Of a stretch of DNA of 64,000 bases, positions 6,284 through 11,560 are shown piece by piece. The notes beneath the pieces were generated by a model, which searched no databases, was not told the DNA's origin, and saw nothing but the letters and a program-made list of their open reading frames with translations. Source of the stretch: an uncultured Acidobacteriota bacterium (GTDB taxonomy: Bacteria; Acidobacteriota; Thermoanaerobaculia; Gp7-AA8); assembly GCA_963822445.1 (NCBI GenBank), contig CAWGHO010000003.1, positions 736,001 through 800,000 on the forward strand, written 5' to 3'. The position numbers and the translations under genes are program-made. Each line of letters opens with the position of its first letter. Position 1 is the first letter of the stretch.

Positions 6284-8629
<2,346 letters not shown>

Positions 8630-8655
8630 CGCGACAGGATACAGTAGCGCTCGCC

Positions 8656-9351
8656 ATGCGCTCACTGCTCGCCGTCTCTCTGCTCGTCGCACTCACCGCA
8701 CACGCCGGAAATCAGGAGATGGAGAAAGCGCTCGCGCGCATCAATGCCTCTACGGAGGCGGCGGATGCGCTGGCGCCGTTTCTTTACATCATGGCTCACG
8801 CGTCCGAGGCGCCGGCGCTGCAGCTTTTCGTTGCGTCGACGGTTGCGATGGGGAACGAGCGTCTGGCAGATGCGGGATTTCTCTTTTACGCCGCGCAACT
8901 GCGCGCGCGATTCGATCTCGCCCGTTATCCGCCGAAAGGCACCGGCGGCAACAGCCCGGCCGCGCTCCTCGGCGCGCTGAATCAGCAGATCGGCGAAGCG
9001 GTCAATCCGGCGATCATGCGCGACCCGGTGGCGTTCGAGAAAGCGGTGAAGCGCGTCGCGGCATACGCGCCCGCGACGCCGGCCGATTATTCGCCGGGCT
9101 GGGAGTTCGCAACCACCGATCCCGCGGCGGCGACGAAGCTCTTCACCGAGCAGGCCGCCGAATTTGCCCGCACGATGGGCGGCATCGCGACGCTCCTCAG
9201 CGACCCGCAGTACTTCGCCGCCTTCAAAACCCTGCAGGACTTCAACTTCAACCCCGACCCGAAGGGGCTGAAGGCGAAGAACGCCGCGGAAGCGAAGATG
9301 CTGGCGATCGAGAAGAAGCGGGGGATCGAGGGGCTGTACTACAAGAAGTAG
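8656..9351 (+). CDS. Secreted hypothetical protein
   Basis: Signal peptide MRSLLAVSLLVALTAHA; typical codon use. Confidence 0.7.
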   Translation: MRSLLAVSLLVALTAHAGNQEMEKALARINASTEAADALAPFLYIMAHASEAPALQLFVASTVAMGNERLADAGFLFYAAQLRARFDLARYPPKGTGGNSPAALLGALNQQIGEAVNPAIMRDPVAFEKAVKRVAAYAPATPADYSPGWEFATTDPAAATKLFTEQAAEFARTMGGIATLLSDPQYFAAFKTLQDFNFNPDPKGLKAKNAAEAKMLAIEKKRGIEGLYYKK

Positions 9352-9468
9352 CCGCCGAGGGCCGGCGGGACGCCGGCGGACCAGATGAGATGAGAAGGCC
9401 AACCTCCCACGCAGTCGCAGGAATCTGCGCTGCAAGGAATGCGTCGAGCGCAAGAAAGGAGATTGGCC

Positions 9469-10575
9469 GTGAAAAAGTCTACCAGCGTCGTCACGTGTAC
9501 GAGCATGCAGAGCAATATCCGTGAAGCCGAGGTGATCGGGATCGATCTTGGAGATCGCGCATCGCACTTCGTGGGTCTGAACAGAAGCGGCGAAGTAGTG
9601 GCCACAGGAAGGGCGACGACGACAGCGACGGCGATCGCCAACGAGTTCGGCGCGATCGGACCAAAGTTGATCGCCATCGAGACAGGTACCCACTCTCCTT
9701 GGGTCTCGAGACTGCTCACGCAGTTGGGCCATCGCGTAGTCGTGGCCAACTCCCGAAAGCTTCGTCTGATCTACGAAAACCGCCGCAAGAACGACCGCGT
9801 TGACGCCGAGTACCTGGCACGGCTGGTGAGGATGGACCCGAAACTGCTCGAGCCGATCACGCATCGTTCCGAGCGCGACCAGCAGCATCTGGCACTTCTG
9901 CGTTCGCGCGACAAGCTGGTGCGGACTCGCACAGGTCTGATTACGCATGTTCGGGGCACGGTCAAGTCGATCGGTCTGCGGCTGCCGGCTTGCTCTGCAG
10001 AGGCGTTCGTAAGTCGGGCGATGCCTCTGATCCCGAAAGAGCTGAAAGCTGCTCTTGACCCTGTTCTTCGCAACGTCGAGCAGCTGAACAAAGACATCGC
10101 CGGCTACGACCGCAAGATCGAGCAACTCGCCAGGACCGAGTACCCGGCCGCGAAGCTGCTCATGCAGATCACCGGTGTGGGACCCGTGACGTCGGTGGCG
10201 TTCGTGGTCACGGTGGGCGACCCGGGCCGGTTCAGGAAAAGTCGCACGGCGGGAGCGTGGGTCGGTCTCACGCCGGGCCAATCCGCCTCGGGTCAGCAGG
10301 ACCCCCAGATGAGGATCACCAAAGAAGGAGACAACTATCTGCGACGGCTACTGGTCAGTTGCGCGCAGTACATCCTCGGGCCGAATCGACCAGACTCGGA
10401 TCTGCGCCGGCACGGGTTGGCGCTGGCGGCGCGAGGCGGAAAGAACGCGAAGAAACGAGCCGTGGTCGCGGTCGCACGAAAACTCGCGGTGCTCATGCAC
10501 AGGCTGTGGCGTACGGAAGGCGTGTACGAACCTCTGTTCAACGCCAACAGGAGTGCCGAGCACTCAGCAGCTTGA
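9469..10575 (+). CDS. IS110-family DEDD recombinase/transposase
   Basis: GIDLGD, IETG, KNDRVDA (RuvC-like DEDD) and C-terminal GVGPVT...GLTPGQSASG; SD AAGGAG before the GTG. Confidence 0.95.
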   Translation: MKKSTSVVTCTSMQSNIREAEVIGIDLGDRASHFVGLNRSGEVVATGRATTTATAIANEFGAIGPKLIAIETGTHSPWVSRLLTQLGHRVVVANSRKLRLIYENRRKNDRVDAEYLARLVRMDPKLLEPITHRSERDQQHLALLRSRDKLVRTRTGLITHVRGTVKSIGLRLPACSAEAFVSRAMPLIPKELKAALDPVLRNVEQLNKDIAGYDRKIEQLARTEYPAAKLLMQITGVGPVTSVAFVVTVGDPGRFRKSRTAGAWVGLTPGQSASGQQDPQMRITKEGDNYLRRLLVSCAQYILGPNRPDSDLRRHGLALAARGGKNAKKRAVVAVARKLAVLMHRLWRTEGVYEPLFNANRSAEHSAA

Positions 10576-10619
10576 GAACCAGGTAGAACCGATCAGCAAA
10601 GAAAGAAACTCGACTCGAT

Positions 10620-10810
10620 CCCTCATCCGGGTGACTGCGAGCGGCGGCTTGGTCGGCAGCGATGCCAGACCGTGGACCAGATGGCAGCACCCAGTTGAAT
10701 CGGACCTCAGCATGCACCGAGCTCGATCGAGCTCACCAAGAGTGCGAATGGAAGCAAGGTCAGGACGAGCGGCGAGAGACAAAGGAGGGCGGCGCCACGT
10801 CGCCGCCCCT
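10620..10810 (+). ncRNA. Putative bridge/seek RNA of the IS1111 element
   Basis: Two stem/internal-loop modules. Loop strands match the target (CGGCGGCT, GGACCAG) and donor (ATGGAAG). GC hairpin at 10787-10808. Ends approximate. Confidence 0.8.
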
Positions 10811-10837
10811 TGACAGGATCAGGCCTTCTCATGGAAG

Positions 10838-10912
10838 CCGCCGAGCCGGCGGCGCTCCAAGCGGCCGGAGCGCTGGCGTCCTCGCCGGCTGTACCGCTGG
10901 CGTCCCGCCGGC
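10838..10912. repeat. REP-like palindrome (GGAGCGCYGGCGTCC family) interrupted by the IS; rest of the left arm at 9361-9384
   Basis: The rejoined empty site is an imperfect inverted copy of 10867-10912; related copy near 57445-57476. Confidence 0.75.
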
Positions 10913-10921
10913 TCACTGTCG

Positions 10922-10938
10922 ACTTTGTTGCGCAAAGC
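10922..10938. promoter_or_regulatory. Operator-like palindrome ACTTT-N7-AAAGC upstream of the regulator/uppS operon
   Basis: ACTTTGTTGCGCAAAGC, followed by extended -10 TGcTATGTT 7 nt before ATG 10961. Confidence 0.55.
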
Positions 10939-10960
10939 CCTTTGTGCTATGTTGCAGTCC

Positions 10961-11560
10961 ATGCCGCGATCCTCCACCGCTCCTGCCTCCATTCACGAGA
11001 AGGCCCTGGCCGACCTCCGTTACATCCGCTCCGCCGTCGAAAACGCCGGTGAGTTCACCGCCGTCTCGGGACGCGGCGGCGTGGCCATGGGAGTTACGGG
11101 ACTCGTTGCTGCCGTCGCCGCGGCGACGCAGACCAGCTTCCCCGTGCGCTGGCTCGCCATCTGGCTCAGCGCGGCTGTCGTCGCCACCACCGTCGGCATC
11201 CTCTCGATGGCCTGGAAGAGCAGGCGCCTCGGAACCTCGCTGGTGTCGGGACCGGCGCGGCGATTCGCGCTCGCATTCTTTCCAGCCGTCGCCGCGGCCG
11301 CCGCGTTGACGATCGTTCTCGTCAGCCGCGCCGAGTTCGACCTTCTCCCGGCCATCTGGCTTCTGCTCTACGGCGTCGCGATCTCGGCCGGCGGCGCACT
11401 TTCCGTCCGCGTCGTTCCGTTCATGGGCCTGGCGCTGCTGCTGACCGGCGGCGCCGCGCTGCTGGTGCCGTTCGCGACCGCGAACCTTCTTCTCGGCCTC
11501 GGCTTCGGTCTCATCCAGATCGGCGGCGGCCTGGTGATCATCCGGAGGTACGGTGGCTAA
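10961..11560 (+). CDS. Multi-pass membrane protein
   Basis: About 6 hydrophobic helices; overlaps the next gene. Confidence 0.8.
   Translation: MPRSSTAPASIHEKALADLRYIRSAVENAGEFTAVSGRGGVAMGVTGLVAAVAAATQTSFPVRWLAIWLSAAVVATTVGILSMAWKSRRLGTSLVSGPARRFALAFFPAVAAAAALTIVLVSRAEFDLLPAIWLLLYGVAISAGGALSVRVVPFMGLALLLTGGAALLVPFATANLLLGLGFGLIQIGGGLVIIRRYGG

Follow-up and report, generated by a model that had tools for sequence, protein, structure and literature searches.

An intact IS1111-type insertion sequence from an Acidobacteriota genome with a predicted two-loop guide RNA matching its target and its ends

Results

The element and its boundaries

Here we describe an insertion sequence (IS) of the IS110/IS1111 family located in a 64,000-nucleotide stretch of the genome of an uncultured Acidobacteriota bacterium (assembly GCA_963822445.1, contig CAWGHO010000003.1, positions 736,001 to 800,000 of the forward strand; this whole stretch is called the window below). 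The host genome comprises 6.0 Mb in 3 contigs with a G+C content of 64%. The IS is intact and consists of a recombinase gene, 84 nt of non-coding sequence 5' of it (9385-9468) and 262 nt of non-coding sequence 3' of it (10576-10837). In this 3' region lies a predicted guide RNA of the kind called bridge RNA or seekRNA, and the element is very probably a member of the IS1111 group of the IS110 family whose own RNA guides its insertion. The features are listed in Table 1. All coordinates of an initial annotation, made by a model from the sequence, were rechecked, and those given for the stem, the guides, the hairpin and the donor motifs proved to be correct throughout.

Table 1. Features of the insertion sequence and of the repeat that it interrupts (window positions)
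Feature	Position	Strand	Description
Left half of interrupted REP-like repeat	9351-9384	+	left target GGACC 9378-9382, core AG 9383-9384
Insertion sequence	9385-10837	+	1453 bp; right-hand copy of the AG core (10836-10837) counted as the last two bases
Left subterminal inverted repeat	9390-9400	+	ATGAGAAGGCC; 5 nt inside the left end, after spacer ATGAG (9385-9389)
Recombinase gene	9469-10575	+	368 amino acids; GTG start after AAAGGAG
Target-binding module of the predicted bridge/seek RNA	10629-10692	+	basis: folds, helix covariation, guide-flank covariation
Outer stem of target-binding module	10629-10638 / 10684-10692	+	GGGTGACTGC / GCAGCACCC
Right-target guide	10642-10649	+	CGGCGGCT (CGGCGG+CU)
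Inner hairpin	10651-10671	+	GGTCGGCA-GCGA-TGCCaGACC
Left-target guide	10674-10680	+	GGACCAG
Donor-binding module (predicted)	10704-10762	+	basis: sequence, comparison with homologues
Right-donor guide	10706-10709	+	CUCA (plus C10711), 5' strand of the second loop
Inner stem of donor-binding module	10714-10717 / 10742-10745	+	GCAC / GUGC
Hairpin of donor-binding module	10719-10734	+	GAGCUC-GAUC-GAGCUC
Left-donor guide	10748-10754	+	AUGGA+AG (ATGGAAG), 3' strand of the second loop
GC-rich hairpin, then TTGACA	10786-10815	+	hairpin 10786-10809; TTGACA 10810-10815, candidate -35 box of a circle-junction promoter
Right subterminal inverted repeat	10822-10832	-	GGCCTTCTCAT on the + strand; then GGA and core AG, 10833-10837
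Right half of interrupted repeat	10838-10912	+	right target CCGCCG 10838-10843; further palindromic arms follow

An AG dinucleotide stands at both junctions of the IS with its surroundings, which identifies AG as the shared core; the right end of the IS reads ...CATGGAAG. The flanking sequence of the genomic copies diverges directly beyond the IS ends, and the boundaries and the AG core are fixed because unoccupied GGACCAGCCGCCG sites exist in the same genome. Inside the ends lies an 11-bp inverted repeat, 5 nt from each of them, which is conserved among the homologues described below; subterminal inverted repeats of 7-17 bp are one of the criteria of the IS1111 group. Within the 64 kb ATGAGAAGGCC is found two times and no more, once per strand, where 0.02 occurrences would be expected. 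A general inverted-repeat search returned five other pairs and not this one; a direct word search confirmed it.

In Pfam the recombinase product shows the IS110-family domain pair PF01548 (E 5.9e-17) and PF02371 (E 2.2e-21), and it scored 228.9 bits with the NCBIfam model NF033542, 'IS110 family RNA-guided transposase', whose cut-off is 140. The position of its GTG start codon is occupied by ATG in three of the four closest relatives (L004, L006 and L008; L numbers denote loci of the comparison below). In an alignment of 23 homologues the residues D26, E71, D109, D112 and G275 were invariant. S274-G275 aligned with the catalytic Ser-Gly of IS621 (PDB 8wt6, chain 8wt6_A), a recombinase in which, as described in PMC11208158, the Ser makes a covalent link to DNA and the DEDD residues make a composite active site. 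Residues 266-275 in the C-terminal domain (GLTPGQSASG) correspond to the motif GL-P----S(t)G, which Siddiquee et al. (2024, PMC11187229) give for IS1111 elements together with subterminal repeats and a downstream non-coding region.

Copies, target sites and the host repeat

The genome carries three copies of the IS, which are 100% identical over all 1453 bp and which were all inserted at GG(A/T)CC-AG-CCGCC(G/T). The initial annotation had pointed to further copies and their flanks as a check on the target, and the two copies besides the one in the window were indeed found at GGACC-AG-CCGCCt and GGtCC-AG-CCGCCG. The left and right flanks are GGCGGACCAG and CCGCCGAG for the window copy, CCCGGACCAG and CCGCCTAC for L002, and GGCGGTCCAG and CCGCCGCA for L003. 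It had also been proposed that removing the IS at the AG core restores the target. The same pre-insertion sequence, GGACCAGCCGCCG, was present unoccupied at three further places in this genome, each time with a single AG. The empty site at C3:175495 matched the left flank in the window at 25 of 25 positions; one empty site agreed with the window flanks at 25/25 positions on the left and 22/25 on the right, and another at 23/25 and 21/25. The empty sites bear out the proposed reconstruction and show that insertion brings about no duplication beyond the core.

The window target lies in the hairpin CGGCGG-ACCAG-CCGCCG, at the boundary of loop and stem, within a dispersed GC-rich palindromic repeat that resembles the repetitive extragenic palindromic (REP) sequences. 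A 75-nt query taken round an empty site gave 29 blastn-short high-scoring segment pairs, mostly 30-50 nt long and 86-98% identical, among which were both repeat halves bordering the window IS (genome 745361-745384, that is window 9361-9384, on the left; genome 746836-746858, that is window 10836-10858, on the right). Globally, the hairpin pattern CG[CG]CGG-N5-CCG[CG]CG occurs 506 times on both strands of the genome, against about 55 as estimated from composition. The opposite arm of the window palindrome, GGTACAG/CCGGCG, lies at about 10885-10900 on the minus strand and departs from the target in three positions, in agreement with the mismatches to both guides that had been noted for it.

The proposal that the element is aimed at a host repeat family stood for the window site, which is in a REP-like repeat, and did not stand for all three copies. 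L002:210-1499 on contig C3 interrupts a PF00144 beta-lactamase-family frame (E 2.8e-62) after codon 430, near its 3' end, at a site that has 12 of the 13 target bases and is without the repeat hairpin. The target is a word of roughly 13 bp, not the repeat as such.

Predicted guides for target and donor in the 3' non-coding region

In the target-binding module, the two strands of one internal loop correspond to the two sides of the insertion site. The right-target guide is the exact reverse complement of AG+CCGCCG (10836-10843), so that as RNA, CGGCGGCU, it can, on the strength of this complementarity, pair with the core and the right target on the top strand. The left-target guide is identical to 9378-9384, the left target plus the core, and by the same reasoning can pair with the bottom strand. 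The minimum-free-energy folds include the outer stem and the GCGA hairpin, that is, this first module. Both target words are common in the genome: counted over the two strands of the 6.0 Mb, GGACCAG has 802 occurrences and AGCCGCCG has 1358. The number expected by chance within 262 nt in the required orientation is about 0.018 for GGACCAG and about 0.030 for AGCCGCCG, jointly about 5e-4, an estimate that disregards the fact that both guides face each other within one internal loop.

In the donor-binding module, the sequence of the left-donor guide recurs as the final 7 nt of the IS, at its right end (10831-10837). The right-donor guide CUCA pairs discontiguously with the left end: 4 nt beside the inverted repeat are followed by an unpaired G and then by a C opposite the core G. 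The initial annotation had described CTCA as partly complementary to the left end; the complementarity was found, in the form of this short and interrupted pairing. Discontiguous pairing of the right donor has also been reported for IS621 (PMC11208160). An outer stem of the donor module was considered; it had no single alignable register across the homologues and is not claimed.

Between the guide RNA and the right end, TTGACA lies 22 nt from the end, and all 20 of the 20 homologues examined had TTGAC(N) at a distance of 21-22 nt from this end. Joining of the two ends would put GAAGAT 17-18 nt downstream of TTGAC(N) in 16 of these 20. GAAGAT, the best hexamer at the junction, matches TATAAT at three of six positions and would make a weak -10 box. 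The conservation of TTGAC(N) fits the junction-promoter model and is only suggestive of a promoter function.

Covariation among homologues

Of 401 genomes searched within the phylum, 24 contained a homologue at E <= 1e-40, the own genome included, and a pattern scan of species representatives added two metagenome-assembled genomes (MAGs; Acidobacteriota, Thermoanaerobaculia). For the RNA, 23 distinct regions were aligned, whose proteins are 44-83% identical to the window protein, and one locus was left out. From these 23 sequences RNAalifold recovered three stems, namely the outer one, the inner one and GCAC/GUGC. Overall, 95.1% of the 388 cells of the scaffold were paired, and 9 of the 17 pairs had changed on both sides; one scaffold pair, for example, is C-G in 10 sequences and U-A in 10. 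None of 500 shuffles reached the covariation score of the scaffold, and when the partners were slid by 1-3 columns, pairing fell to 26-48%. The comparison of folds across homologous IS ends, which had been suggested as a check, therefore came out in favor of the proposed RNA, its scaffold helices being kept with compensatory changes.

Among the copies collected, one of two Acidobacteriota-MAG copies (L006:2380-3130) is without a left end, its flank running into IS position ~45. Its recombinase match falls into two pieces at residue 208/209, and it looks like a decayed, frameshifted copy.

To compare guides with flanks, we took the longest exact run between each guide and the flank of its own insertion, for elements with a usable flank. 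The right-target guides had a mean cognate run of 7.0 nt (24 insertions), compared with 3.5 nt for 590 non-cognate pairs, and in 16 of the 24 no non-cognate guide equalled the cognate one. The corresponding values for the left-target guides were 6.0 nt (24 insertions) and 3.5 nt (592 pairs), with no non-cognate guide equal to the cognate in 13 of 24. Compensatory changes are visible in the closest relatives: guide CGGCGGCU and target AGCCGCCG of the window element are replaced by CGCCGGCU and AGCCGGCG in L004 and L005, and on the left side GGACCAG in both guide and target becomes CGAGCCAG in both in L005 and GGGCCAG in both in L008. Mismatches occur as well, namely in L004, where the left guide GGUCCAG stands at a GGGCCAG site, and in L008, whose right guide has one mismatch. 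The covariation of guide and target that the initial annotation had called for is thus present among the homologues.

Two loci have unusual right flanks. In L021, on a contig of 2890 bases, the sequence beyond the IS right end repeats a stretch of the element's own 3' non-coding region, and the right guide mismatches the flank; the arrangement may reflect nesting or tandem insertion, or else an artefact of the assembly. In L026 the 9-nt word matched by the right-target guide does not adjoin the IS end but begins 8 nt downstream of it, so that either the IS end is misplaced or the flank was altered after insertion.

The donor guides followed the ends of their own elements. In 17 of 20 cases the left-donor guide is identical to the final 7 nt of the IS that carries it (the misses being L033, L016 and L034), against 11 of 238 non-cognate combinations of elements with a different end, and its variants AUGGAAG, AUAGAAG and AUAGAAA track the IS ends. 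For the right donor, the 4 nt directly outside the left inverted repeat had their reverse complement within the 5'-strand region in 17 of 23 elements, against 64 of 382 non-cognate combinations; the misses are L004, L012, L035, L034, L022 and L024. The matched pairs of guide and end are CUCA/TGAG, CCCA/TGGG, ACCA/TGGT, UCCA/TGGA and CCUU/AAGG. A switch of the core also belongs to these changes: L020 and L036 have the core AA, the target guides carry UU and AA at the core, and the donor guide is AUAGAAA.

Two copies in one genome, L033 and L014, have right ends that differ (CATAGAAG and CATGGAAG); the donor guide is AUGGAAG, and therefore one copy has a mismatched end.

The two RNA bases after the left-target guide are AU in 20 of 23 sequences, and the first two bases of the IS are AT in 23 of 23. 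Since the AU corresponds to the AT of the IS start, this strand of the loop is colinear with the integrated left junction, and it could, to judge from that correspondence, serve as a handshake or excision guide. The third base after the left-target guide was also considered as a handshake position; it did not covary with the third base of the IS.

Discussion

Weighing of the explanations

The anatomy of the element, its copy number and site specificity, the empty sites, the covariation of the helices and the covariation of guides with DNA were all observed here, and together they make it very probable that the element is intact, belongs to the IS1111 group of the IS110 family and has its own RNA guiding insertion. 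Expression and processing of the RNA, formation of a ribonucleoprotein, a circular intermediate, a junction promoter and the chemistry of strand exchange are what we infer from the published mechanism of the family. According to this mechanism, a recombinase whose DEDD domain is RuvC-like and whose Tnp domain contains a Ser would act together with a guide RNA of ~135 nt, encoded in the 3' non-coding region and folded into two internal loops, and recombination at the shared AG core would insert the circularised element into GGACC-AG-CCGCCG without duplication.

Several observations weigh against this explanation. The fold stability of the region is unexceptional, with z values of -1.1 and -1.7 that are not significant alone. 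Rfam 15, searched at E <= 1 over window 9000-11300, gave no matching family; it appears that Rfam 15 is without a bridge RNA or seekRNA model that reaches the RNA of this element. The recombinase has 368 amino acids (356 from the next ATG), compared with the 330-350 quoted for IS1111 transposases. The right-donor guide pairs over 4 nt and one core base only, leaving the core A and position 1 of the left end unpaired, and no sigma-70-like promoter was found within the integrated copy. As to the comparison with homologues, the pairs of the scaffold were counted in the very alignment that had yielded its structure, which favors the structure. The right guide matches the flank weakly in L034, L018, L021 and L024 (4 nt) and in L008 and L023 (5 nt), and the left guide does so in L032, L020 and L026 (3 nt) and in L004 (4 nt). 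Moreover, the permutation figures overstate independence because the homologues are related to one another and a number of rows represent copies of a single element; the guide-flank figures rest on about 14 distinct target groups.

The alternative that survives best, although we consider it improbable, is that of a real IS1111-type IS which is currently inert, its copies having been amplified recently and being no longer expressed or without a working RNA. The lack of a promoter-like site in the integrated copy would agree with this, as would the three perfect target sites that are still unoccupied. However, the identity of the three copies over their whole length, the open reading frame with its intact catalytic residues and the perfect match of guide and target all speak for a functional element. 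Furthermore, the family is expected to transcribe mainly from the junction promoter after excision, as set out in PMC11187229 and PMC12288879, and therefore silence of an integrated copy is expected. The three identical copies and the intact catalytic residues suggest that the element is probably active, as the initial annotation had put it.

Much less credible still is a site chosen by the protein, through recognition of the subterminal repeats or of a hairpin, with the matches in the 3' region being coincidental or remnants of captured targets. GC-rich genomes do yield many short GC-rich matches, AGCCGCCG with its many genomic occurrences being one of them, and the target lies within a hairpin that a protein could recognise. 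On the other hand, the matches occupy fixed positions of the scaffold in 23 homologues and change along with at least about 14 targets, and the switch of the core from AG to AA is included in these co-changes. One copy lies in coding sequence that has no repeat hairpin but does have 12 of 13 target bases, and experimental reprogramming has been published for relatives. The least probable explanation, which we give almost no weight, takes the conserved 3' structure as a regulatory part of the transposase mRNA (a terminator, a stability element or an antisense target); its position directly after the stop codon and the further GC hairpin downstream would suit such a role, but it does not account for the fact that the flanks and ends are followed by the unpaired strands of the loops rather than by the helices.

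Relation to known systems

RNA-guided insertion by IS1111-group elements, the explanation favored here for the window element, can be compared with several described systems. For 93.0% of IS1111 elements, a bridge RNA at the right end was predicted by Durrant et al. (2024, PMC11208160), in whose account left guides pair with the bottom strand, right guides pair with the top strand and the core takes part in all four. The seekRNA of IS1111 elements is described in PMC11187229 as an RNA from the 3' end in which the match to the top strand lies 5' of the match to the bottom strand, the two overlapping in the target. As characterized there, the seekRNA elements ISEc11, ISPa11, ISKpn4 and ISPst6 share with ours the recombinase with DEDD and S/T-G residues, the GL-P----S(t)G motif, the subterminal inverted repeats, the long non-coding stretch that follows tnp, the guide order (with the complement of the top strand lying 5' of that of the bottom strand), the overlap at the insertion point and a natural re-direction among relatives. 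Compared with the elements of that account, ours differs in the host phylum (the relatives found here are Acidobacteriota), in the target and in the length of the recombinase.

The bridge RNA of IS621, an element of the IS110 group, resembles that of our element, by the descriptions in PMC11208160 and PMC11208158, in having two internal loops with two guides each, in guides directed at opposite strands to the two sides of a 2-nt core that takes part in the pairing, and in the discontiguous right-donor pairing; the catalytic DEDD and Ser residues and a REP-like target are further likenesses. By the same descriptions, the RNA is located 5' in IS621 but 3' here, and each loop has its guides in the opposite order. 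Our element also has long, 11-bp subterminal repeats, and its core reads AG on the transposase strand and CT on the other. Protein similarity between the two was detectable over the Tnp domain only (E 3.8e-7).

Both the targeting of REP sequences and the AG ends have precedents among relatives. ISPpu9 and ISPpu10 of Pseudomonas putida, as presented in PMC12288879, are likewise inserted at a fixed position in a species-specific REP family (a REP-like repeat for the window site), have the AG dinucleotide at both ends and occur in several copies per genome; unlike our element, ISPpu9 is there assigned to the IS110 group, is without terminal repeats and has an extra small RNA of its own.

The mechanism has been known since 2024, and the element is an ordinary further example of it, well supported. 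More tentatively, and with a good deal of doubt on our side, its clade within one soil-bacterial phylum may form a natural series, unusual in its clarity, of IS1111-type bridge recombinases that have been reprogrammed. The clade has one conserved two-loop RNA at the 3' end, whose donor loop is a simple internal loop, in contrast to the multi-loop reported for many IS1111 elements. It spans at least about 14 different targets, and the core was switched from AG to AA along with all four guides. If this holds, the clade would serve as a comparative data set for the rules of donor recognition and excision in IS1111 elements, which the seekRNA authors, in their account, treat as unsettled.

For an IS1111-type element of this kind, the guide, target, donor and core are readable from the sequence alone. 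The 20-odd natural variants from a little-studied phylum come with matched sets of guides, targets and ends, and among them are the change of core and one insertion that lies outside the repeat family and tolerates a single mismatch. Their use lies in annotation and as comparative material for the engineering rules of bridge recombinases; the known mechanism is unchanged by them.

Surroundings of the element

The reading frames flanking the element in the window, at 8584-9351 (255 amino acids) and 10925-11560 (211 amino acids), had no Pfam family at E <= 0.001. In the Thermoanaerobaculia MAG, several tandem units of ~22 nt (GTTGTCACGCTGCGACACGGG-like) stand directly to the left of the IS, at L005:2240-2400.

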